Source of the DNA: Gammaproteobacteria bacterium
GTDB taxonomy: Bacteria > Pseudomonadota > Gammaproteobacteria > UBA4575
Assembly: GCA_965222615.1 (NCBI GenBank)
Contig: CBDCUI010000007.1
Span: forward strand, 384,001-448,000
Direction of reading: 5' to 3'
DNA: 64,000 nt
The notes under the pieces were generated by a model, which saw nothing but the letters and a program-made list of their open reading frames with translations, did not search any database and had not been told where the DNA came from. Below, in pieces: positions 6,122 through 41,648 of the stretch (position 1 is the first letter of the stretch; each line of letters opens with the position of its first letter). The translations under genes were made by a program, and so were the position numbers.

Positions 6122-7225
6122 TCACTGCTTAGCTCCTAGATCTATTGCGCGCTTTTTAATTGCTTCTTTGTCACTTAAGTCCTTAGTTTCTACAGAGCTT
6201 TCCGGCCAGCCTTGTATGTGCTGCAATATAATATTTGCTAGGGCTTCGATGTGCGCCGGTTCGACATTTAATGCAGGAATATAGTTAAACGATTCACCAC
6301 CACTTTGTAAGAAGACATCACGGTTTTCTATACTTATTTCTTCAAGCGTCTCTATGCAGTCCGCTGAAAAACCGGGACAAAATACATCTATGGACTTAAT
6401 GCCTTCACTGGGCAGTTTTGCCATAGTTTTAATGGTGTAGGGCTGCAACCATTCTGCTTTACCAAAGCGTGACTGAAAAGTAAGTTGCCACTCTTCATTT
6501 TTTAAGTTTAATTTTTTTGCAATCAATCGTGCGGTTTGATGGCATTCACAATGATATGGGTCTCCTTGCAATAAGTTTCGTTTTGGCAAACCATGAAAAG
6601 AAAAAATTAATCTTTGGCTACGTTCGTGTTGCTGCCAATGGTTTTGTATTTGCATTGCACAAGCATTGATATAGCCTTCATCTGCACCATAATTATTTAT
6701 CATACGCAACTCAGGCGTCCAACGCTGTTGCATGAGTTCTTTAGCCACTGCATCAAACGTTGAAGCCGTGGTACTTGCAGAATATTGTGGATACAGTGGT
6801 AGCACTAGTATCCGTCTCGCATTAACTTTTTTCAGTCTATTTAGTCCTGACTGGATTGAAGGCTTGCCATAACGCATTGCTAACTCTACTTGTATAGGTC
6901 CTGGAACTACTTTATCTAAGGCTAGTTGCAATGCAGCTCGCTGCTGCTTACTGATGACTAATAAAGGTGATCCTTGTTCAGTCCAAATCTTTTTATAGTC
7001 TTCTGCTTTCTTACTAGGCCGTGTTCGTAAAACAATTCCATGTAGAATCAACCACCATAATGGTCTTGGAATTTCAACAACTCGTGGATCCCATAAAAAC
7101 TCAGCTAAATATTTTCTTATCGCTTGAGTGCTGGCTTCCTCAGGTGTACCTAGATTGGTAATTAGCACGCCAAGACAGGTATCACTAGCATGGATATAAT
7201 CTGATTGGCCCTGAAATTTAGGCAT
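6122..7225 (-). CDS. hemH: Ferrochelatase
   Basis: NLGTP, LPLYPQYS, FSFHGLP, FQSRFG..EWLQPYT and DCIETLEEI. Confidence 0.97.
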   Translation of the reverse strand: MPKFQGQSDYIHASDTCLGVLITNLGTPEEASTQAIRKYLAEFLWDPRVVEIPRPLWWLILHGIVLRTRPSKKAEDYKKIWTEQGSPLLVISKQQRAALQLALDKVVPGPIQVELAMRYGKPSIQSGLNRLKKVNARRILVLPLYPQYSASTTASTFDAVAKELMQQRWTPELRMINNYGADEGYINACAMQIQNHWQQHERSQRLIFSFHGLPKRNLLQGDPYHCECHQTARLIAKKLNLKNEEWQLTFQSRFGKAEWLQPYTIKTMAKLPSEGIKSIDVFCPGFSADCIETLEEISIENRDVFLQSGGESFNYIPALNVEPAHIEALANIILQHIQGWPESSVETKDLSDKEAIKKRAIDLGAKQ

Positions 7226-7360
7226 ATGAACAGATAAAACTTTTAAGGCTAGATATTCAAGTCAAAGACAGTCTAATGTAAAGCGTTAGTTGGGTAACGT
7301 ATTCAACTAGAGAGTAACCCAAACCGCTTTAAAATGCGATCTAAGAGTCTAAGTACTACA

Positions 7361-7507
7361 GGAAGTTCTGATTTATTAATGGAATGGCTGAGATTAGGCA
7401 AAATGATTTCGAAAAAGCGGAGTGTATAAGGTACATACATGAGCATTTTGAGAAATCATTACTAATTCATCTTTTTTTGGGACATATCAGAATAAATCAG
7501 AACTTCC
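7361..7507 (+). repeat. Full-length ERIC/RPE-like palindromic element (MITE-like)
   Basis: Perfect 17-bp terminal inverted repeat GGAAGTTCTGATTTATT / AATAAATCAGAACTTCC; internal AGGC..GCGGAGTGTA..TACATGAGC core. Confidence 0.85.
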
Positions 7508-9379: not shown

Positions 9380-9895
9380 TCAATTACTGGGCTTCTTATC
9401 ACGGCTTTTTTTATATGGTCGGTCTTTAGCAATATCTCGTTGCTGAGCCCGCTGCTTCCATTTTTTTCTGGCTTGTTTTCGTTGCTCAGGAGTCATATTT
9501 TTCCATCGCTGACGTAATCTTTGTCTTTGCTCAGGTGTCAGGCTTTGAAACCATTTATAGCGTTCACGAATTTTTTTACGTTGCTCAGGGGGTAATTGCT
9601 CAAATCGCTTAAAACGATCGCGAACCTGCTGTTTTTGCTGTGGATTAAGAGATTTCCATTTTCGCATTTTATGCTTGGCACGAGCACGCTGTTCTGGTGT
9701 CATTGACAACCATCGTTTAGCCCCACGTGCAAGTTTGTGTTGCTTTTCCACTGACAATTCTGACCAGCGCCCTTCAAAGCGTTTTAATATTTTTTGCTGC
9801 TCACTGCTGAGATCGTTCCATTGAATTACATCACCTTGTGCATAGCTCAATGCACAAAATAACAACAGCAATAAGCAAGTAAAAATTTTATTCAT
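9380..9895 (-). CDS. DUF3106-like exported protein with W..L.PEQ repeats
   Basis: Signal peptide from ATG 9895 (MNKIFTCLLL); repeated WNDLSSEQ / WLSMTPEQ / WKNMTPEQ. Confidence 0.8.
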   Translation of the reverse strand: MNKIFTCLLLLLFCALSYAQGDVIQWNDLSSEQQKILKRFEGRWSELSVEKQHKLARGAKRWLSMTPEQRARAKHKMRKWKSLNPQQKQQVRDRFKRFEQLPPEQRKKIRERYKWFQSLTPEQRQRLRQRWKNMTPEQRKQARKKWKQRAQQRDIAKDRPYKKSRDKKPSN

Positions 9896-10100
9896 TTTCC
9901 ACATTTTGTATTTCAGGTTGCTCGGCTTCATCAAGTGTCGACCAAAAGAAGTCATACCAATCCTCTTCTTCCGCTTCAAATGATCCCAGCATTTCTAAAA
10001 ATTCCTCATCAAGTTCTTCCGTATCATCTACAGTCTCGGCCCAAACTGACTGAAAAATATAAATAACACATAGCACCAAAACATAATTAAGTCGTAACAT
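9888..10100 (-). CDS. Small acidic exported protein of the ECF sigma cluster
   Basis: Hydrophobic N-terminus, LDEEFLEMLGSFE motif; overlaps both neighbours. Confidence 0.65.
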   Translation of the reverse strand: MLRLNYVLVLCVIYIFQSVWAETVDDTEELDEEFLEMLGSFEAEEEDWYDFFWSTLDEAEQPEIQNVENE

Positions 10101-10461
10101 CTTCGTCTGCTAGCCAAGTATAAAATTCCAACTCTTCGTACAAATCTAACGCATCTTGAGCGGCCATGAGTTCCATAGCTTCAAAGCTCTCTTCTTCAAT
10201 TACCCCTTGTTCATTTATGAGAGGCCATTGTGGCTTTACAACTAACACTGCAATAAACACCGTAAATGCAGTAGCTAAAATTGCCTTATTCCAATTTGAA
10301 GTAAAAAACGTTTTACGCTTTTGTTGTGCCAAAGCACGTTGACGTGCTGCATTGAGTTTATGACAGGTTTCTGCATCGAGGCGATCCACCGAATCATCTA
10401 AGGCTTTACTAATACGTGTAAGCAGTTCGCGCTCACTTGAATTTTGTTTGTCATTACTCAC
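10087..10461 (-). CDS. Putative anti-sigma factor (DUF3619-like)
   Basis: ALDDS...L..ARQRAL, single TM segment, C-terminal DLYEELEFYTWL; follows the ECF sigma gene. Confidence 0.8.
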   Translation of the reverse strand: MSNDKQNSSERELLTRISKALDDSVDRLDAETCHKLNAARQRALAQQKRKTFFTSNWNKAILATAFTVFIAVLVVKPQWPLINEQGVIEEESFEAMELMAAQDALDLYEELEFYTWLADEDVTT

Positions 10462-11021
10462 AATCGACCTTCTAAATGTTTGCGTAGATATTGAATTGCA
10501 CGAGAATAGTGAGTCTTAACACTGCCTTCAGAACATTGCATGACATGCGCAGTTTCTGCCACATCCATACCTTCCCAGGCACGCAATAAAAATGCCTGTC
10601 GTTGGCGCAATGAAAGCTGTTGTATTGCATCATTCACTTGTTCCACCGAGTCTTGTAAGTTTGACATGTCGACAGGATCCATATCATCGCCTGATAATTC
10701 CTGAATTGGGTCATTCCCCTCATCTGCTTCATTAACATTTGATAACCACACTCGCCAACGACTTTGCGTGGTATTTCTCCTATGCAAATCCATAATGCGA
10801 TTATTCAAAATTCGATAAAATAATGGTGCCCATTGCTCTGCTGGCTTATGTGCATATTTCTTTACTAATTGCATCATTGCATCCTGTACAACATCTAAAG
10901 CGTCCTCACGGTTCCTCGTCGACATTTCAGCGATGCGAAATGCACGACGCTCGATATTTACGAGAAACTCCTCAAGTTGCTGAGAATATGTTGTAGCCAA
11001 TCTGTCCTCACTGTGTAGCAA
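10458..11021 (-). CDS. ECF RNA polymerase sigma factor
   Basis: DALDVVQDAM region 2; LSLRQRQAFLLRAWEG..VAETA..M.CSEGSVKTHYSRA region 4. Confidence 0.93.
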   Translation of the reverse strand: MLHSEDRLATTYSQQLEEFLVNIERRAFRIAEMSTRNREDALDVVQDAMMQLVKKYAHKPAEQWAPLFYRILNNRIMDLHRRNTTQSRWRVWLSNVNEADEGNDPIQELSGDDMDPVDMSNLQDSVEQVNDAIQQLSLRQRQAFLLRAWEGMDVAETAHVMQCSEGSVKTHYSRAIQYLRKHLEGRL

Positions 11022-25244: not shown

Positions 25245-26510
25245 TTATTCAGCTACGAATTCCGGATAAGCTTCCAAACCACATTCAGAAATATCCGCAC
25301 CCTCCATTTCTTCTTCTTCTGACATACGAATTCCCATAATAGCTTTGAGTATGCTCCAGGCAATGAAACTGGTTACAAATACCCAGATAAATATGGTAGC
25401 CGCACCTAATAGCTGCCCGCTGAAACTAACCTCACTGTTAGTTAACGGCACTGCAAGTAAGCCCCACAAACCTACTGTTCCATGCACTGAAATGGCGCCT
25501 ACGGGGTCATCGATCTTAATCTTATCTAACAATACGATGGACAATACGACGATCACTCCACCAACCGCACCAATTACAGTAGCTGCTAAAGCCGATGGGG
25601 TGGAGGGCTCAGCGGTAATAGCAACCAGCCCTGCTAGTGCGCCATTAAGCGCCATGGTTAAGTCTGCCTTTCCGAACCACAAACGTGCCAGTATTAAAGC
25701 GGCAACTAAACCCCCTGCTGCTGCAGTATTGGTGTTTAAAAACACCATGGCCACTGAATTAGCACTGCTGATATCACCCAGCTTCAATACCGAGCCACCG
25801 TTAAATCCAAACCATCCCATCCACAAAATAAAAGTACCGAGTGTGGCAAGCGGTAAATTCGCACCTGGCAAAGCATGCACTTTCCCGTCAGAAGTATATT
25901 TACCTTTACGCGGACCAAGTAGCATCACACCGGCTAAAGCCGCCGCTGCCCCAGCCATGTGGACAATTCCTGAGCCGGCAAAATCGGAAAACCCAGCCTC
26001 ACCAAGATTGAACATACCGAATACATCCGCACCGTTCCAAGTCCAGCTTCCTTCCATAGGATAAATAAAGCCAGTCATGACCAGCGCAAACAATAAAAAT
26101 GCCCACAGCTTCATGCGTTCAGCCACCGCACCAGAAACTATAGACATGGCAGTGGCAACAAATACGACTTGGAAAAAGAAGTCTGAAGAATCTGCGTAGA
26201 CTGAATCCCCATCGAAGCCATTTTCTGCAGACGCAGCCAATGCATCTTTTACCAAACTTTCACCACCCGCGATACCAGATAAAAACCAAGTGCCGTCATA
26301 CATAATCATATATCCACAGACCATATACATGATGCAAGAAATTGAATACAAGGCGACATTTTTAGTAAGAATTTCTGCTGTGTTTTTACTTCTTACTAAA
26401 CCTGATTCAAGCATGGAAAAGCCTGCAGCCATCCACATTACTAATGCGCCGCACACCAAAAAATAAAAAGTGTCCATTGCATATTGCAATTCAAAAATTT
26501 GGTTTTCCAC
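25245..26510 (-). CDS. amtB: Ammonium transporter
   Basis: FFFQVVF, SGAVAER, DFAGSGIVH, WMGWFGFNGGS and DDPVGAISVHG. Confidence 0.95.
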   Translation of the reverse strand: MENQIFELQYAMDTFYFLVCGALVMWMAAGFSMLESGLVRSKNTAEILTKNVALYSISCIMYMVCGYMIMYDGTWFLSGIAGGESLVKDALAASAENGFDGDSVYADSSDFFFQVVFVATAMSIVSGAVAERMKLWAFLLFALVMTGFIYPMEGSWTWNGADVFGMFNLGEAGFSDFAGSGIVHMAGAAAALAGVMLLGPRKGKYTSDGKVHALPGANLPLATLGTFILWMGWFGFNGGSVLKLGDISSANSVAMVFLNTNTAAAGGLVAALILARLWFGKADLTMALNGALAGLVAITAEPSTPSALAATVIGAVGGVIVVLSIVLLDKIKIDDPVGAISVHGTVGLWGLLAVPLTNSEVSFSGQLLGAATIFIWVFVTSFIAWSILKAIMGIRMSEEEEMEGADISECGLEAYPEFVAE

Positions 26511-26538
26511 AATTCCCTCCTAGCGAGAATAATTATTA

Positions 26539-26913
<375 letters not shown>

Positions 26914-27022: not shown

Positions 27023-27739
27023 TCAGCTACCCCATTTCATGATGTCGAAAGTTCGATGAATCCCGATATATGCTTCGGTCTCATCATCATCATCTCCACC
27101 ACTATTGATAATATTGGCATCAGTGGAGACGATGGCCGCGGTTACATCAAACCCAGCTACTTCAAACCCATAGCCAAACTCCCAATAACTACCTAAATCA
27201 TCTTCAGCATCATCATCGAACTGACCGTAGGTGAGATAAACGCCATTCCATCCTGCAGTGGCTGCATAGAAAACATAGTTATCACCTTCGGTATTTCCAG
27301 CATCATCTAGAAATACACCGTTGTATTCGCCATCGGTGTATTCGAGATCAAAAGACCAAATATCATCAGACCAGCCTGCATAAAGATTGACTTCGTTATA
27401 TTCGCGATCGAAGTTGTCTGAGTATTGGAACGTGGTATATCCCGCCCCTAAATACATGCCATTTGTAAATTCATGTACATAACCACCGTACACGTCATAT
27501 TCAATACCTTCGTCTTCTACATCAGCAATCCATGTGCCTACATAGAAACCTCCTATTTCTAAATCGACTCCTCCATTAGCGGTACCCGATGATTGTGGAA
27601 TGCCACGAAATATATAGTCGGATAAAATTCCCGCATTGCCGGAAAGAGTTGCTTCTGCCGCTAATGTGGTGTGAGTAAGCACCGTACAACTACTCACGAC
27701 CATCATCGCTAGTACCAAGCGTTGTAGTTTCATATTCAT
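27023..27739 (-). CDS. TorF/Gcw_chp family putative outer-membrane porin
   Basis: Signal peptide, SDYIFRGIPQS, GFYVGTW, EYDVYGGY; conserved position upstream of glnK. Confidence 0.85.
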   Translation of the reverse strand: MNMKLQRLVLAMMVVSSCTVLTHTTLAAEATLSGNAGILSDYIFRGIPQSSGTANGGVDLEIGGFYVGTWIADVEDEGIEYDVYGGYVHEFTNGMYLGAGYTTFQYSDNFDREYNEVNLYAGWSDDIWSFDLEYTDGEYNGVFLDDAGNTEGDNYVFYAATAGWNGVYLTYGQFDDDAEDDLGSYWEFGYGFEVAGFDVTAAIVSTDANIINSGGDDDDETEAYIGIHRTFDIMKWGS

Positions 27740-33184: not shown

Positions 33185-33895
33185 CTATTCTGCGTTATCT
33201 GCTTTTGTAGCTATCTTTGCTTCTTTCTCAGCCAAATAATTTATTAACTGCAATAAACGATCATAGCCACCTGCGTCTCCTGCTGTACTCCTATATTTAC
33301 CATCAATAATAACTGTCGGTACTGCACTTGACCCATATTGCCGTACCAATTGATTCGAGCGCTTTATTTTTGTCTCTACATAAAATGAGTCGTATGCCTT
33401 TTTAAACTCATCGGCATCAATACCATGCTGAGATAAAAAACGTGCCATTGAGTCCATGTCTCTCAGTCTTCTACCCTGTGTATGTATAGCTTCAAATATT
33501 ACAGAATGCATTTTATCGATCTCGCCCATGGTTTCTAATGCATAGTAAGCTCGCGCATGTGGAATCCAACCACGATTTAATACCGCAGGCATGCGTACAA
33601 ACTCGATATTTTCGGCTTTATTCTGCTTCCAATCCTTTAAAAATTTTTCAAATTCAAAACAATGTGGGCAGCCATACCAAAACAACTCTAAGACCTCAAC
33701 TTTGTCAGGACTGACGTCAGTAGACACAGGTGGAGAAATCTCATGGTAATGTTGACCGACTCGAAAATCATTGTGGTTGACATGGGTGTGAGAAGTCTGT
33801 TCTCCCCCATCGGCAATTGCTATTTGCAAAACCATTACCATCACAAAAACCAATGAAAGTACGGATAAAACACGAATGCGATTTGAAATAGCCAT
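33185..33895 (-). CDS. dsbA: Thiol:disulfide interchange protein DsbA
   Basis: EVLELFWYGCPHC and AVPTVIIDGKY; signal peptide. Confidence 0.93.
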   Translation of the reverse strand: MAISNRIRVLSVLSLVFVMVMVLQIAIADGGEQTSHTHVNHNDFRVGQHYHEISPPVSTDVSPDKVEVLELFWYGCPHCFEFEKFLKDWKQNKAENIEFVRMPAVLNRGWIPHARAYYALETMGEIDKMHSVIFEAIHTQGRRLRDMDSMARFLSQHGIDADEFKKAYDSFYVETKIKRSNQLVRQYGSSAVPTVIIDGKYRSTAGDAGGYDRLLQLINYLAEKEAKIATKADNAE

Positions 33896-34008: not shown

Positions 34009-34638
34009 CTAGTGCAACCCGGCAATATATTCTGCCACCGCTTCAATTTCCTGTTCAGTCATATAACTAGCAATATCTTTCATCATATTCAAATTATCAT
34101 CGATTTGATAACGTGCCCCACTTCGATACGCACGTATTTGTGCAGCGGTATATAGCGCATGTTGACCAGCTAGACGAGGAAATTTAGCAGGAGAATTACC
34201 AACCCCGTTGGGGGCGTGACAAGACATGCATGCCGGAACCCCTGTTTCAGGATTACCCCCTCTATATATACGCTCACCGATAACATATATTTGTTCACCC
34301 TGGAATTCTTTCTCTGGATCAGCAGCACCTTTACTTGGGGCTTGACTAGAATAAAATGCCGCTAAATCCAGCATATCCTGCTCAGATAAGTTTTCGGCCT
34401 GTGGATTCATCAAAGTATTGATGCGAATTTTTTCTTTAAACAGTTGCAACTGATCAACAAGATATTTCTCACCTTGACCAGCCAGCTTCGGCCATGCGGG
34501 GTTAACGCTATTGCCATCTACACCATGACAGGCTGCACATGGAGCTGACTTTTGTTGACCAACTTTGGGATCACCTGCGGCAATAGCAGAATTCATACCC
34601 AGAAAGAAAATAACGATCAAACAACACAGCTTTTTCAT
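34009..34638 (-). CDS. Di-haem cytochrome c4
   Basis: CAACH and CMSCH, each followed by P.LAGQ; divergent from engB. Confidence 0.93.
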   Translation of the reverse strand: MKKLCCLIVIFFLGMNSAIAAGDPKVGQQKSAPCAACHGVDGNSVNPAWPKLAGQGEKYLVDQLQLFKEKIRINTLMNPQAENLSEQDMLDLAAFYSSQAPSKGAADPEKEFQGEQIYVIGERIYRGGNPETGVPACMSCHAPNGVGNSPAKFPRLAGQHALYTAAQIRAYRSGARYQIDDNLNMMKDIASYMTEQEIEAVAEYIAGLH

Positions 34639-34869
34639 GTAATAAATTCCTTACTATAAATAATATATTTTGTGTTCTATCCTAGTCTTAATTTGCTAAT
34701 GACCACAGCAAAAGCGGCTGTTTGTATACCATAAAGAACTTGTCGCCGCAAAAAATCACCTATGCCATAACTAAAGCTGAGCATTCTTGACTAAATCCCT
34801 ATAGTCTTGGAAGTTCATGAATAGCAAGAGTTGCACAATTTTAGAGAATTTTGTATTTCCATCTACATC

Positions 34870-35484
34870 ATGAGCATCTCATTTACCCAAGCACGTTTTT
34901 TAAAAAGCGCGTCATCAAAACAAGACTTTCCACAAGATAGTGGTGCTGAAATCGCTTTTTGTGGTCGCTCTAACGCAGGCAAATCGAGTGCCATTAATGC
35001 CATATGCCGCCAAAAAAACCTTGCGCGCACCAGTAAAACACCAGGACGTACGCAGTTAATCAACTTTTTTAAATTAGATGGTGATGCCTATTTAGTCGAC
35101 CTACCTGGTTATGGCTATGCCAAAGCCCCTCGTCATATTCAACAGCATTGGCATAAATTGATGGAAATTTATTTGATGAATCGCCAAGTTTTATGTGGCT
35201 TAGTTTTATCCATGGATATTCGACATCCGTTGACGGATATTGATTGGGCCATGATTCACTGGAGCAAATATTATCAATTACCCTTATATATCCTGCTAAC
35301 CAAAATTGACAAAGTGAAAAAAAATCAAATGACGAAAACCATCACTAAGGTATCTTCTGAGCTAGAACTAAACGATTTTGAATTTGGAATTCAACTGTTT
35401 TCAGCTACCAAGCATATTGGCATTCACCAGGCACAGGAAAAAATTTCTGCGTGGTTTATGCGGGCCTTAATTGATCAACATTAA
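34870..35484 (+). CDS. engB: GTP-binding protein EngB/YihA
   Basis: GRSNAGKSS, SKTPGRTQ, DLPGYG and TKID; ATG 34870 preferred. Confidence 0.96.
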   Translation: MSISFTQARFLKSASSKQDFPQDSGAEIAFCGRSNAGKSSAINAICRQKNLARTSKTPGRTQLINFFKLDGDAYLVDLPGYGYAKAPRHIQQHWHKLMEIYLMNRQVLCGLVLSMDIRHPLTDIDWAMIHWSKYYQLPLYILLTKIDKVKKNQMTKTITKVSSELELNDFEFGIQLFSATKHIGIHQAQEKISAWFMRALIDQH

Positions 35485-35491
35485 ATCAGCT

Positions 35492-35605
35492 AAAAAAGCG
35501 CCCCGGTTAAATGGGAAAAAAAACCGGGGCCAAGTAGGACTCGGTTGGGGAGCCCGAGCCTAAAACGCCCGCTAAGGGAGGGAAGCGGGTAGCGCTGTTG
35601 CGCTA
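35492..35605 (-). ncRNA. Candidate small RNA with C-rich hairpin loops (sX13/ErsA/Spot42 genomic slot)
   Basis: Four consecutive hairpins; minus-strand loops UCCCUCCCUU, CUCCCC and UUUCCCAU; last hairpin followed by U6; sigmaE promoter upstream. Confidence 0.75.
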
Positions 35606-35609
35606 TGTA

Positions 35610-35636
35610 TTAGAGGGTACTAAAGCTTAAAAGTTC
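35610..35636 (-). promoter_or_regulatory. sigmaE/AlgU promoter of the candidate sRNA
   Basis: Minus strand GAACTT-N16-TCTAA, ending about 5 nt before the first hairpin. Confidence 0.75.
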
Positions 35637-35668: not shown

Positions 35669-36034
35669 TTAAAATCGCTGCTTTACAGATACTCCATAGG
35701 CCTCCACATCTTCCTCGGGTAACTTCACACCGTGATATCTGTGCGGATCCTTGCGCAAATCATCTAGGCCATCACCTCTGTAGATCTGTAATGAAAACTT
35801 TCTTTGTTCAGAACTAGACGAATTCGCGGGACTGTCGCTGCCATACCTTGGAGAGGTATTCAAACTATAGCCCGATGGTGGTGTTATGACCGGAGTCCAA
35901 ATATATGGATGGTAAGGGTCAGTTAACGATAAATTCCCCAAATTTAAATCCAATGCCATTGCTACCTGAGCAATCGAACCCATCGAAATGACAATGGTAA
36001 ACAATAGGGCTGATTTAATGATGTTCCTTATCAT
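35669..36034 (-). CDS. Hypothetical exported protein
   Basis: ATG 36034 with AGGGA RBS, signal peptide, C-terminal beta-strand-like YGVSVKQRF. Confidence 0.65.
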   Translation of the reverse strand: MIRNIIKSALLFTIVISMGSIAQVAMALDLNLGNLSLTDPYHPYIWTPVITPPSGYSLNTSPRYGSDSPANSSSSEQRKFSLQIYRGDGLDDLRKDPHRYHGVKLPEEDVEAYGVSVKQRF

Positions 36035-36272
36035 TTTAAAATCCCTGTGTAGTGAGCCCATTGATACTAGGCTCACATTGTTCCAACTCAAAATCCTATT
36101 GACGAATGATTATATTTACCCGTCGTGAACCGGCGTATGAAGGTTGATAAAAGGCTATGGCTGATAGATGAAGCGTAGCTTTGCACTAGCAGCAAACTTC
36201 AGACTTGCGAACTCAATCACATAATATTTGCTGCTTTACCAGCTATTGAGCTTAGCTCAAATCTGGCATAGA

Positions 36273-38912: not shown

Positions 38913-41648
38913 TTAATGGGCTTCATCCCAATTGCTACCATACGCAGCATCTACAACTAATGGCACAGACAGTTCTGCTGCGTTTACCATATATTCAATA
39001 ATGGTGTCTTTTATTTTTTCGTCACACTTTTCGGGCACTTCAAAAACTAATTCATCATGTACTTGCATAATCATTTTACAATCTGAATGCTTTTGTTGTA
39101 GCCAATCATCAATTTGAATCATGGCGCGCTTAATGATATCAGCTGCTGTACCCTGCATCGGCGCATTTATTGCAGTGCGTTCGGCGTATTGCCGTCGCTG
39201 TACATTTTTATTATTGATATCGGGCAGATAGAGTCTTCTGCCAAACAATGTTTCAACATAACCCTGTTCACGTGCCTGCTCGCGAATATTATCCATATAC
39301 TTTTTAACCCCTGGATAACGTTCAAAATATAAACTTACATATTGTTGTGCTTCGGTACGTGTAATGCCTAATTGGCGTGCCAATCCAAACGCCGACATAC
39401 CGTAAATCAAACCAAAGTTTATCGCCTTTGCGGCACGACGCTGTTCTGCTTCAACCTTGTTCAGTGCAATACCAAAAACTTCTGCAGCAGTAGACCGATG
39501 TATGTCTTCTCCCTTTGCAAAGGCTTCACCTAATCTTTCATCTTGGGATAAATGAGCCATGATTCTCAATTCAATTTGAGAATAGTCAGCTGCTAAAATC
39601 TGCTGGTCTGTTGGAGCAATAAATGCCTGCCTAATACGTCTACCTTCTTCTGTACGTATTGGAATGTTTTGTAAATTTGGATCGGAAGAAGATAGCCTAC
39701 CCGTTGAAGCTACCGCTTGATGATAAGAAGTGTGGATGCGATTAGTAGAGGTGTTAATTAATGTTGTAAGCTTATCTGTATAGGTTGATTTAAGTTTACT
39801 TAAAGTGCGATGCTCAAGTAATAATTTTGGTAACGGATAATTCTCTGCAAGTTCTTGTAATACATCTTCTGCAGTAGAGGGCTGACCCTTTGGTGTCTTA
39901 CGTATAACCGGCAGGCCTTGTTTCTCAAACAATATTTCTTGAATTTGTTTTGGCGAGCCTAAATTAAATTTTTGTCCAGCGAGTTCAAACGCTTGTTTTT
40001 CTGTATCTTCTATTATTTTTTGAAACTCTTTGCTAAGCCGTTGTAACTGCTTGGCATCTAACAAAACTCCATTACGCTCCATATTCGAAAGAACTTTAAG
40101 CATGGGTAGCTCGATGCTTAAGTATAGGCTTTTTTGTTTGGATTTTTGCTTTTGTTCTAGCTCAGACCAGAAGATTTGATGTAGCTGCAATACCATATCC
40201 GCATCTTCTGCCGCATATTCGACAGCCTTATCTAACTCTACTTGATCGAAAGTAATTTGCTTACTGCCTTTGCCTGCTACATCTTCAAAATGAATATTGG
40301 CATGGCCCAGATGCTTCTCACACAAGGAATCAAGATCATGTCGACTGGCGACCGAGTTACAAACATAAGACTGCAGCATGGTGTCATGCTGTATGCCATC
40401 TAATTGAATATCATGATTTAGCAAAACACTGCGATCATATTTTAAATTATGGCCAATAATCTTGCTGGGATCAGCATTTAAAATTGGCTCAAGCTTTTGA
40501 AGGATCTCTTCTCTATCTAACTGTTTAGGTGCGCCAGGATAATCATGCTTAAAAGGAACGTATGCGGCTTCACCCGGTGTAACGGCGAAGGAAAGGCCAA
40601 CAACATTGGCCTGCATATAATCAAGATTGTCTGTTTCCGTGTCAAAGGCGACCAAATCTGCCTGCTGAAGTCGATTTAACCAACGATTCAAATCTTTTTT
40701 AGTAAGAATACATTCATAATTCCGTTGCTTAGTTTCTGCACTGGGTTTTGGCGCAACTTCTTCCTCAATTATTTCATTTGCTTCAGACTCAAGTTTTTTT
40801 AACCAGCTTTTAAATTCAAGCTCTGTGTAGAGCTGCTTTAATAGTTTTAAATCTGCTGTTTGAATTTTTAAATCTTCGATACCGATATCTAAATCCAAAT
40901 CACAACGTATAGTGGTTAGTTCATATGACAGAGGAAGTTGTTTGATATGTGCGCGCAGCTTTTCACCTACCTTGCCTTTAATCGTGTCTGAGTTTTCGAT
41001 TACTCCGTCCAGCGATTCATGTTCATTCAGCCATTTGGCCGCAGTCTTTGGGCCGACACTAGGTACCCCAGGTATATTGTCGGACTTATCGCCCGTTAGC
41101 GTTAGATAGTCGATAATTTGACTGGGTGTGACCCCGAACTTTTTCTTAACCCCTGAAGCATCCATTTTGGTATTTGTCATGGTGTTAACTAACGTGACAT
41201 GGTCATTGACTAATTGAGCCATATCTTTATCACCTGTAGACACCAATACCTGTCGTCCTTGCTCGGCTGCACGTTTGGCTAAGGTGCCGATCACATCATC
41301 TGCTTCTACACCAGGCTCTAAAATAAGTGGTAAACCCAATGCTTGCACAATGTTATGTAACGGCTCGATTTGCTGCTGCAGCTCCTCCGGCATCGGTGGT
41401 CGATTGGCTTTATAGTCTTTATACATATCATGTCTAAAGGTCTTGCCTTTGGCATCAAATACAACAGCCATATGCTTTGGTCGTTCATCGTTGAGCAATT
41501 TATTAAGCATATTGACCACACCATATATTGCGCCTGTGGGCTGGCCTGATGATGTGCTTAAATGTTGTAAATTCGGTACATGAAAAGCCCGATACAAATA
41601 AGAGGAGCCATCAACCAATATCAGCGGAGGTGTATTATTTTTAGCCAT
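38913..41648 (-). CDS. polA: DNA polymerase I
   Basis: 5'-3' exo LVDGSSYLYRA, 3'-5' exo FDTET, polymerase ADYSQIELR, KAINFGLIYG and QVHDEL. Confidence 0.98.
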   Translation of the reverse strand: MAKNNTPPLILVDGSSYLYRAFHVPNLQHLSTSSGQPTGAIYGVVNMLNKLLNDERPKHMAVVFDAKGKTFRHDMYKDYKANRPPMPEELQQQIEPLHNIVQALGLPLILEPGVEADDVIGTLAKRAAEQGRQVLVSTGDKDMAQLVNDHVTLVNTMTNTKMDASGVKKKFGVTPSQIIDYLTLTGDKSDNIPGVPSVGPKTAAKWLNEHESLDGVIENSDTIKGKVGEKLRAHIKQLPLSYELTTIRCDLDLDIGIEDLKIQTADLKLLKQLYTELEFKSWLKKLESEANEIIEEEVAPKPSAETKQRNYECILTKKDLNRWLNRLQQADLVAFDTETDNLDYMQANVVGLSFAVTPGEAAYVPFKHDYPGAPKQLDREEILQKLEPILNADPSKIIGHNLKYDRSVLLNHDIQLDGIQHDTMLQSYVCNSVASRHDLDSLCEKHLGHANIHFEDVAGKGSKQITFDQVELDKAVEYAAEDADMVLQLHQIFWSELEQKQKSKQKSLYLSIELPMLKVLSNMERNGVLLDAKQLQRLSKEFQKIIEDTEKQAFELAGQKFNLGSPKQIQEILFEKQGLPVIRKTPKGQPSTAEDVLQELAENYPLPKLLLEHRTLSKLKSTYTDKLTTLINTSTNRIHTSYHQAVASTGRLSSSDPNLQNIPIRTEEGRRIRQAFIAPTDQQILAADYSQIELRIMAHLSQDERLGEAFAKGEDIHRSTAAEVFGIALNKVEAEQRRAAKAINFGLIYGMSAFGLARQLGITRTEAQQYVSLYFERYPGVKKYMDNIREQAREQGYVETLFGRRLYLPDINNKNVQRRQYAERTAINAPMQGTAADIIKRAMIQIDDWLQQKHSDCKMIMQVHDELVFEVPEKCDEKIKDTIIEYMVNAAELSVPLVVDAAYGSNWDEAH

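Follow-up and report, generated by a model that had tools for sequence, protein, structure and literature searches.

A conserved small RNA gene at the 3′ end of engB: a probable divergent relative of anti-hemB/ncS04 with an RpoE-type promoter motif

Described small RNAs of the engB and polA neighbourhood

The anti-hemB motif (RF02837) was defined in Betaproteobacteria with its strand left ambiguous (Weinberg 2007, PMC1950547), and it is the closest described counterpart of the element considered here, a non-coding unit on the minus strand at positions 35492-35636 of a 64,000-nucleotide (nt) stretch from the genome of an uncultured Gammaproteobacteria bacterium of marine type (contig CBDCUI010000007.1; the window in what follows). 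In Burkholderia cenocepacia, the motif corresponds to ncS04, a 105-nt RNA with a 3′ end confirmed by rapid amplification of cDNA ends (RACE) and differential RNA sequencing, which sits between hemB (BCAL0264) and EngB (BCAL0265) in the layout '<- -> <-' and converges on engB (PMC5688073). The RNA is drawn there with four hairpins, the second having a CCCGC/GCGGG stem and a UUCUCCUCCCUGA loop, and with a terminator ending in U7 (PMC5688073); it also co-purifies with Hfq (PMC4603805, PMC5688073). A 2026 preprint reads anti-hemB as an antisense regulator of hemB, and its main text mentions neither engB nor Gammaproteobacteria. A literature search that had most subscription journals outside its reach found no paper linking anti-hemB/ncS04 to sigmaE or to the engB slot.

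Three other small RNAs (sRNAs) serve for comparison. ErsA (Pseudomon-1, RF01719) of Pseudomonas aeruginosa occupies the polA-engB intergenic slot, is sigma22-dependent, and carries a U-rich unstructured target-binding region between its stem-loops SL1 and SL2 (PMC8575079). The 115-nt sX13 (RF02232), encoded downstream of polA, has stable stem-loops with 4C/5C motifs for pairing to G-rich sites in mRNAs, and its C-rich loops are reported to be required for activity; it is also reported to be restricted to Xanthomonadaceae and Hfq-independent, and its authors raised the kinship of polA-locus sRNAs (PMC3771888). Spot 42 (spf, RF00021) is without C-rich loops, and its repression by cAMP-CRP is stated in the title of a reference cited in the sX13 paper (PMC3771888). 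Homologues of spf have been found via polA/yihA synteny in a 2026 preprint.

Compared with these systems, the element at 35492-35636 is, on the sequence evidence set out below, a real and conserved small RNA gene beside the 3′ end of engB. We favour, with reasonable rather than high confidence, the reading that it encodes a trans-acting sRNA of ~112-114 nt that is a divergent, sub-threshold member of the anti-hemB/ncS04 family, with an RpoE-type promoter and the mechanism proposed further on.

Structure, conservation and strand of the element

The minus strand carries a promoter-like GAACTT-N16-TCTAA motif followed by four abutting hairpins (P1-P4) and a U6 tail (Table 1), and the letters and coordinates of this unit are as a preliminary description of the locus had given them. 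No open reading frame (ORF) of at least 40 aa lies between engB, which ends at 35484, and the next gene, which ends at 35669, and the RNA contains no AUG. Its minimum free energy fold consists of exactly the four hairpins (-51.3 kcal/mol, z -4.92), with 0 of 200 dinucleotide shuffles as stable, and the element forms a GC island (0.58 vs ~0.38 in its surroundings). The four hairpins first described hold; the third stem, which had been given as a perfect TAGGCTCGG/CCGAGCCTA pair, does not, as its 3′ arm reads CCGAGUCCUA and contains either one bulged U or a 7-bp core, GGCUCGG/CCGAGUC, with a G-U pair. From the predicted start at 35603/35604 the RNA would be 112-113 nt long, the earlier estimate having been ~114 nt. 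The U tract begins 8 nt past the engB stop codon (35482-35484). A sigma70/terminator scan listed no terminator at P4 because the 13-nt loop of that hairpin exceeds the 8-nt loop limit of the scan.

To place the element in related genomes, we scanned genomes with an EngB query, which gave 49 pattern matches, four of them confirmed as relatives (L001, from the complete chromosome OZ244982.1, and L002-L004). All are uncultured metagenome-assembled genomes titled Gammaproteobacteria, Proteobacteria or Thiotrichales, and their EngB proteins show 70-80% identity; as L002-L004 are mutually close, the set with the window amounts to about three independent lineages. The element lies directly after engB, in convergent orientation, in 4/4 fetched relatives (5/5 loci with the window), which bears out the earlier proposal of a discrete non-coding minus-strand gene. 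The relatives' copies fold at z -4.67 to -5.77, and pair cells are paired in 97.8% of cases across the alignment as against 26-42% when partners are slid by 1-3 columns; the P1 loop is longer by 7 nt in L002-L004. The preliminary description had placed the gene in a polA/engB slot, of which the engB adjacency is kept throughout, while polA is found 1-2 genes from the RNA in the window and L001 and is not nearby in L002-L004. It follows that engB, and not polA, is the constant neighbour.

The distribution of identities along the locus was examined in alignment A1 for the pairs window/L001, window/L002 and L001/L002. The -35 box (6/6) and the -10 box (5/5) are identical in every pair and P2 agrees at 21-22 of 22-23 positions, whereas identity falls to 5-8/16 in the spacer, 5-9/25 in the upstream flank and 3-6/12-14 in the downstream flank; at the four-fold degenerate sites of engB it is 55%, 31% and 35%, respectively. 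Judged from these identities, selection holds the two boxes, the distance between them and P2, whereas neutral positions have come close to saturation. A search with a model built from the new RNA itself (R1) found only the five input copies in 104,652 bases, and with filters off it gave no other match in the window above 10.9 bits; blastn against plasmids gave no match.

The alignment also distinguishes between the strands. Five pair positions (nine cells) carry G-U pairs, for which the plus strand would have A-C mismatches, and no position favours the plus strand; the plus-strand fold reaches a z of only -2.57, and the U tract is confined to the minus strand, with none after a hairpin on the plus strand. 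Taken together, the G-U cells, the folds, the U tract and the promoter show that the minus strand is the functional strand. There is only a very small chance that the plus strand acts instead, as a 3′ UTR (untranslated region) or terminator of engB, in the orientation given as 'hemB motif' in Weinberg 2007, where GGA loops might be offered to a protein of CsrA/RsmA type. Such a role would suit the lack of a separate engB terminator ahead of the element, which begins 8 nt past the engB stop, and the GGA held by each of the plus-strand loops AAGGGAGGGA, UUGGGGAGC and AAAUGGGAAAAAA, and the two orientations were found hard to separate when the motif was defined (PMC1950547). However, in addition to the nine cells, none of which reverse, and the fold difference (z -2.57 vs -4.92), the conserved promoter faces the opposite way, the P3 loop of L004 has neither GGA nor UCC, and mapping of the Burkholderia transcript gave the anti-hemB orientation.

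Smaller still is the chance that no regulatory RNA is made and that the hairpins are just terminators clustered where two genes converge. The flanking genes do converge in the window and L001, and P4 could plausibly terminate the upstream ORF, the stop codon of which lies 33 nt before the -35 box in the window with no terminator between; in these two loci, the RNA may also form the 3′ end or 3′ UTR of the upstream-ORF mRNA by read-through. Terminators, though, do not hold loop letters and a promoter invariant amid saturated four-fold sites, the upstream gene in L002-L004 ends ~170 nt before the promoter, and the Burkholderia homologue is an abundant, Hfq-associated transcript.

Table 1 Features of the RNA gene and of the surrounding locus, in window coordinates
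Feature	Positions	Strand	Remarks
dsbA-like gene	33185-33895	-	
Cytochrome c4	34009-34638	-	
engB/yihA GTPase	34831-35484	+	Convergent with the RNA; conserved anchor of the locus; NCBIfam TIGR03598, 237 bits
U6 tail, preceded by GC	35497-35492 (U6)	-	U tract in 5/5 sequences
P4, predicted intrinsic terminator hairpin GCCCCGGUU/AACCGGGGC, loop UUUUUUCCCAUUU	35530-35500	-	
P3 hairpin, loop GCUCCCCAA	35562-35535	-	Stem kept in 5/5 sequences
P2 hairpin, stem CCCGCU/AGCGGG	35589-35568	-	Loop UCCCUCCCUU at 35583-35574; proposed anti-Shine-Dalgarno seed
P1, 5′ hairpin UAGCGC-AACA-GCGCUA	35605-35590	-	
Predicted start	35603-35604	-	G35603 by the +1 rule, A35604 adjacent
-10 box TCTAA	35614-35610	-	16 nt past the -35 box
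Spacer, 16 nt	35630-35615	-	
-35 box GAACTT	35636-35631	-	Letters of RpoE/AlgU type (extracytoplasmic function, ECF); same in 5/5 sequences
Small exported protein, 140 aa, no known family	35669-36091	-	Likely start ATG 36034
AAA_22 protein, 791 aa	36273-38648	-	
polA	38913-41648	-	

Family assignment

Among Rfam families, RF02837 is the top match in 5/5 copies, in each over the full model (1-81), with E values of 1.6e-8 to 7.9e-7 on 221-nt stretches, the range for all matches being 1e-8 to 4e-4. The scores are 35.2 bits in the window, 40.7 in L001, 34.7 in L002, 33.1 in L003 and 35.2 in L004, which puts RF02837 14-22 bits ahead of the next family. The models of sX13, ErsA and Spot 42 were run on the window, L001 and L002, where they gave, in that order, 18.4 bits, 16.1 bits and no match (sX13), 17.7 bits, 15.2 bits and no match (ErsA), and 14.1 bits, no match and 15.5 bits (Spot 42). 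The gathering scores of the four models are 49.5 (RF02837), 50 (sX13), 50 (ErsA) and 80 (Spot 42). Unrelated RNAs with C-rich loops (LhrC, ar14 and mmgR/suhB) reach 14-21 bits, about level with the three sRNAs from polA loci. We rejected sX13, ErsA, Spot 42, LhrC, ar14 and mmgR as kin on these scores, which at 11-21 bits are irreproducible across the three lineages.

These results change how the gene is to be classified. The preliminary description had proposed a possibly new family that combines an ErsA-type promoter with an sX13-type structure. The suggestion of a new family gives way to RF02837, the only reproducible Rfam match and one that is full length in every copy, though sub-gathering; the proposed kinship with sX13 and ErsA is not borne out, as both score far below their gathering score of 50 and have no match in L002. 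The suggested Rfam comparison thus yields a sub-threshold match to anti-hemB (33-41 bits) and noise-level scores (14-18 bits) for sX13, ErsA and Spot 42.

Beyond the scores, the element resembles ncS04 in the order of its parts, namely a 5′ hairpin, a second one whose CCCGC/GCGGG stem bears a CCUCCCU loop, a third hairpin, and a terminator with a U tract; in length (105 nt there vs ~112 nt here); and in converging on the 3′ end of engB, as it does in 5/5 loci here. P2 is the best-matched portion of the RF02837 alignment. It is because architecture, P2 letters, length and position agree with ncS04 that we file the RNA as a divergent, sub-threshold member of the family. It differs from ncS04 in that its hosts are labelled Gammaproteobacteria or Thiotrichales rather than Betaproteobacteria, and in that no hemB is adjacent, the ALAD family having no match among 60 ORFs of the window. 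On its upstream side stands a small exported ORF (window and L001) or a DHOR di-haem peroxidase gene (L002-L004). Moreover, P3 has a C-rich loop in the window and L001 as against a U-rich one in ncS04, and the promoter is of RpoE type here as compared with a sigma70-like -10 box there.

An independent family could have come to resemble anti-hemB by convergence, given that C-rich-loop hairpins and GC-rich terminators are common in sRNAs. Scores under the gathering score, the 14-21 bits reached by the unrelated LhrC, ar14 and mmgR/suhB, and a low similarity outside P2 to the printed ncS04 sequence (compared by eye) are what such a history might leave. We nonetheless consider convergence quite unlikely, since anti-hemB leads in all five copies by the margin given above and over its full model, and since the CCCGC/GCGGG stem, the CCUCCCU loop core, the hairpin order and the engB-convergent position are the same as in ncS04.

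The likenesses to the other sRNAs are more partial. As with ErsA, there is a sigma22/sigmaE-type promoter motif (in 5/5 copies) and, in the window and L001 though not in L002-L004, the polA-engB slot; a partial covariance-model alignment (model positions 34-108) covers P3, an ACUUG linker, the CCCCGG/CCGGGG terminator and CCCAU in its loop. The U-rich target-binding region of ErsA (PMC8575079) is, however, missing here. In the covariance-model alignment with sX13, consensus loop 2 has the same letters, CUCCCCAA, as the P3 loop of the window and L001, but many pairs of that alignment are mismatched, and the CCCC/CCCCC motif does not occur in each of the three loops of our RNA. The geometry of the Spot 42 locus in E. 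coli is the same, with polA followed by spf facing yihA/engB, whereas the match to the Spot 42 Rfam model lies mainly in the terminator. In the reverse direction, the best match to R1 in the E. coli locus (6.5 kb) is spf, at full length and 16.4 bits, as compared with 14.3 bits in an E. coli terminator control (49 kb) and 10.9 bits in the 64-kb window; the link to Spot 42 is suggestive at most.

Promoter motif, P2 loop and proposed mechanism

Both boxes and their 16-nt spacing are the same in 5/5 sequences, and the strict GAACTT-N16-TCTAA motif occurs once per related locus, at this RNA only; it was not found in two E. coli loci, L005 and L006. The letters upstream of E. coli rpoE read GAACTT-N16-TCTAA and are identical to those of the window, so that the earlier call of a sigmaE-type promoter stands, with boxes of RpoE/AlgU type that stay invariant while the spacer drifts. 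The corresponding sequences of E. coli are GAACTT-N16-TCTTA for rybB and GAACTC-N16-TCTGA for micA, and the annotated +1 of both is the seventh nt after the -10 box. It is this rule that, applied here, places the start at ~G35603/A35604. The likeness to RybB and MicA extends to a short RNA with an intrinsic terminator, and it stops there, with no similarity in sequence or structure. RybB and MicA use 5′-end seeds and not an apical C-rich loop.

Similar motifs were noted elsewhere in these loci. A second RpoE-type motif lies ~30 nt upstream of the dsbA-like gene, as GAACTA-N16-TCTTA in the window (33953-33927, minus strand) and as GAACTT-N16-TCTTA in L001 (4071-4097, minus strand), with a spacer that differs between the two; none was found upstream of dsbA in L004. 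The dsbA motif lends modest independent support to an RpoE-type regulon in this lineage. A further GAACTT-N16-TCTTA at 7342-7368 (minus strand), 117 nt upstream of the ferrochelatase gene hemH (6122-7225, minus strand), could be due to chance; hemH is followed by a BLUF sensor gene.

The P2 hairpin with its loop UCCCUCCCU is nearly invariant (91-100%, with 21-22 of 22-23 positions the same between lineages), and the apical loop is complementary to AGGGAGG. The P3 loop GCUCCCCAA, by comparison, is limited to the window and L001 and is replaced by AUUUCCAA in L002 and L003 and by AUUUCAA in L004, and the P4 loop retains only UCC across lineages. The C runs of the three loops are thus CCC, CCCC and CCC in the window and L001, while L002-L004 are C-rich in P2 only. 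The tandem C-rich loops of the preliminary description are in this way reduced to one conserved loop, and the conservation that it anticipated in related genomes applies to the promoter, the stems and, among the loops, to P2.

A target scan covered 62 translation-initiation regions in the window, and the best P2-loop duplexes lay at -16 to -21 kcal/mol, where the mean over 60-62 sites was -7. The top duplexes were formed with amtB (25245-26510, minus strand), a DUF484 gene, and a gene for a Gcw_chp protein (27023-27739, minus strand; Shine-Dalgarno sequence AAGGGAGG), which we take to belong to an outer-membrane-like family. We do not claim these genes as targets, as they merely have the window's strongest Shine-Dalgarno sites. 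The strongest duplex of all, at -17.7 to -21.5 kcal/mol, involves the amtB Shine-Dalgarno sequence UAGGAGGGAA in a glnK-amtB pair (25245-26877, minus strand). The neighbouring small ORF was likewise set aside as a conserved target, since its Shine-Dalgarno sequence shares AGGGA only and the gene is absent in L002-L004.

We hypothesize the following mechanism for the favoured reading. As the conserved boxes suggest, a holoenzyme with an ECF sigma factor of RpoE/AlgU type would start transcription at ~35603/35604, and the RNA would rise under envelope stress. Transcription would end at the P4-U6 terminator, in keeping with the RACE-supported 3′ end of the homologue. The P2 loop UCCCUCCCU would then pair with AGGGAGG-type Shine-Dalgarno regions and block translation initiation, on the model of sX13 and other sRNAs with C-rich loops, and on the same model P3 and P4 may assist through their UCC(C) loops in some lineages. 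Hfq probably binds the U tail, given that ncS04 co-purifies with it. By analogy with RybB, MicA and ErsA, the targets would be envelope or transport proteins.

A number of observations weigh against this reading. All RF02837 scores lie below the gathering score of 49.5 bits, and a search of the whole window with Rfam at gathering thresholds returned nothing. Covariation is non-significant, with one compensatory pair, in P1 (C-G to U-A), and 57 of 500 shuffles reaching the observed score; as the stems are mostly invariant, they hold little covariation information, and the covariation supports the structure without proving it. The relaxed motif GAACTT-N15-17-TCNNA is not rare (2 matches in the window vs 1.79 expected, and at least 2 in 55 of 100 shuffles), and the weight of the promoter motif comes from its conservation and not from its rarity. 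The window's sole ECF sigma gene (10458-11021, minus strand) is of PRK09047 type (233 bits), with no GAACTT upstream. In Burkholderia, ncS04 was unchanged in 7 quantitative PCR conditions, osmotic stress and low pH included (PMC5688073). A sigma70-like -10 motif, GTATATGAT, lies a few nt before its mapped +1 in the 59 nt printed upstream, where by eye no RpoE-type box pair is in register with the start and a GGAAC lies too far upstream (PMC4603805). Given this -10 box and the lack of change in the 7 conditions, stress control is not a family trait. As for the loops, P3 and P4 do not keep their C-rich motifs across lineages, which leaves P2 as the sole conserved C-rich loop; sX13 works without Hfq, so that the C-rich-loop analogy does not bring Hfq dependence with it; and the in-window target scans yielded only ordinary strong Shine-Dalgarno sites.

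Some of these points would also fit an RNA that is real and related to anti-hemB but has boxes serving another ECF sigma factor or another role, with no tie to envelope stress. Many ECF groups use GAAC-containing -35 boxes, a non-RpoE ECF sigma factor is encoded in the window, and ncS04 did not respond in the conditions named above. We regard this as unlikely, because the letters and spacing are identical to those of the autoregulated E. coli rpoE promoter, the layout matches rybB and micA, and the envelope gene dsbA likewise has an RpoE-type motif upstream of it in two lineages. The ECF sigma factor of the window was itself rejected as the regulator, being neither of RpoE type nor preceded by such a motif. 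Its gene belongs to a minus-strand cluster (9380-11021) in which it is followed by a 124-aa ORF without known family and a gene for a DUF3106 protein.

Gene neighbourhood and possible orthology

L001 has the gene order of the window, minus the AAA_22 gene, and in L002-L004 the far-side neighbour of the RNA is the DHOR di-haem peroxidase gene. The small exported protein of the window has a counterpart in L001 (5796-6164, minus strand; 53% identical) and none in L002-L004. It has a signal-peptide-like N-terminus and matches no Pfam, NCBIfam or PADLOC family. Kept upstream of it in both lineages are a TAAATATAAT box and a 5′-UTR block, GAGTTGGAACAATGT, followed by a hairpin (window ~36050-36115). 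The AAA_22 ATPase gene, which lies between the small ORF and polA, has a low GC content (0.30-0.35) and no PADLOC match; it is probably an insertion, given that L001 lacks it but is otherwise syntenic. On the other side of engB, the place that dsbA and cytochrome c4 hold upstream of it in the other lineages is taken in L002 by genes for an IS1595-family transposase and a fused DNA methylase-HNH protein (L002 1433-4083).

It is possible, although we put this forward only tentatively and hold it to be doubtful, that a single ancient sRNA gene, situated downstream of polA next to the 3′ end of engB and older than the beta/gamma split, gave rise to anti-hemB/ncS04, the RNA described here, ErsA, sX13 and perhaps Spot 42 as diverged orthologues. 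Terminator and position would have been kept, while seed loops and promoters (sigma70, sigmaE/sigma22, CRP-controlled) would have been repeatedly rewired. Under such an ancestry, the present RNA would be a bridging form that unites the P2 of anti-hemB, the CUCCCCAA loop of sX13, and an ErsA-like 3′ half with a stress promoter.

The assignment that we favour, to the anti-hemB/ncS04 family, would extend a structurally defined but functionally uncharacterised family past the reach of the Rfam threshold. The conserved anchor of the family would be engB rather than hemB, and this weakens the idea, repeated in the 2026 preprint, of an antisense regulator of heme synthesis. The locus would also provide a clean case of promoter rewiring, from a sigma70-like promoter in Burkholderia to a predicted RpoE-type promoter here. 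If the deep orthology is true, model sRNAs that now go by four separate names would turn out to be a single lineage, and there would be a rare chance to follow how the seed, regulator and regulon of an sRNA change over long evolutionary time.

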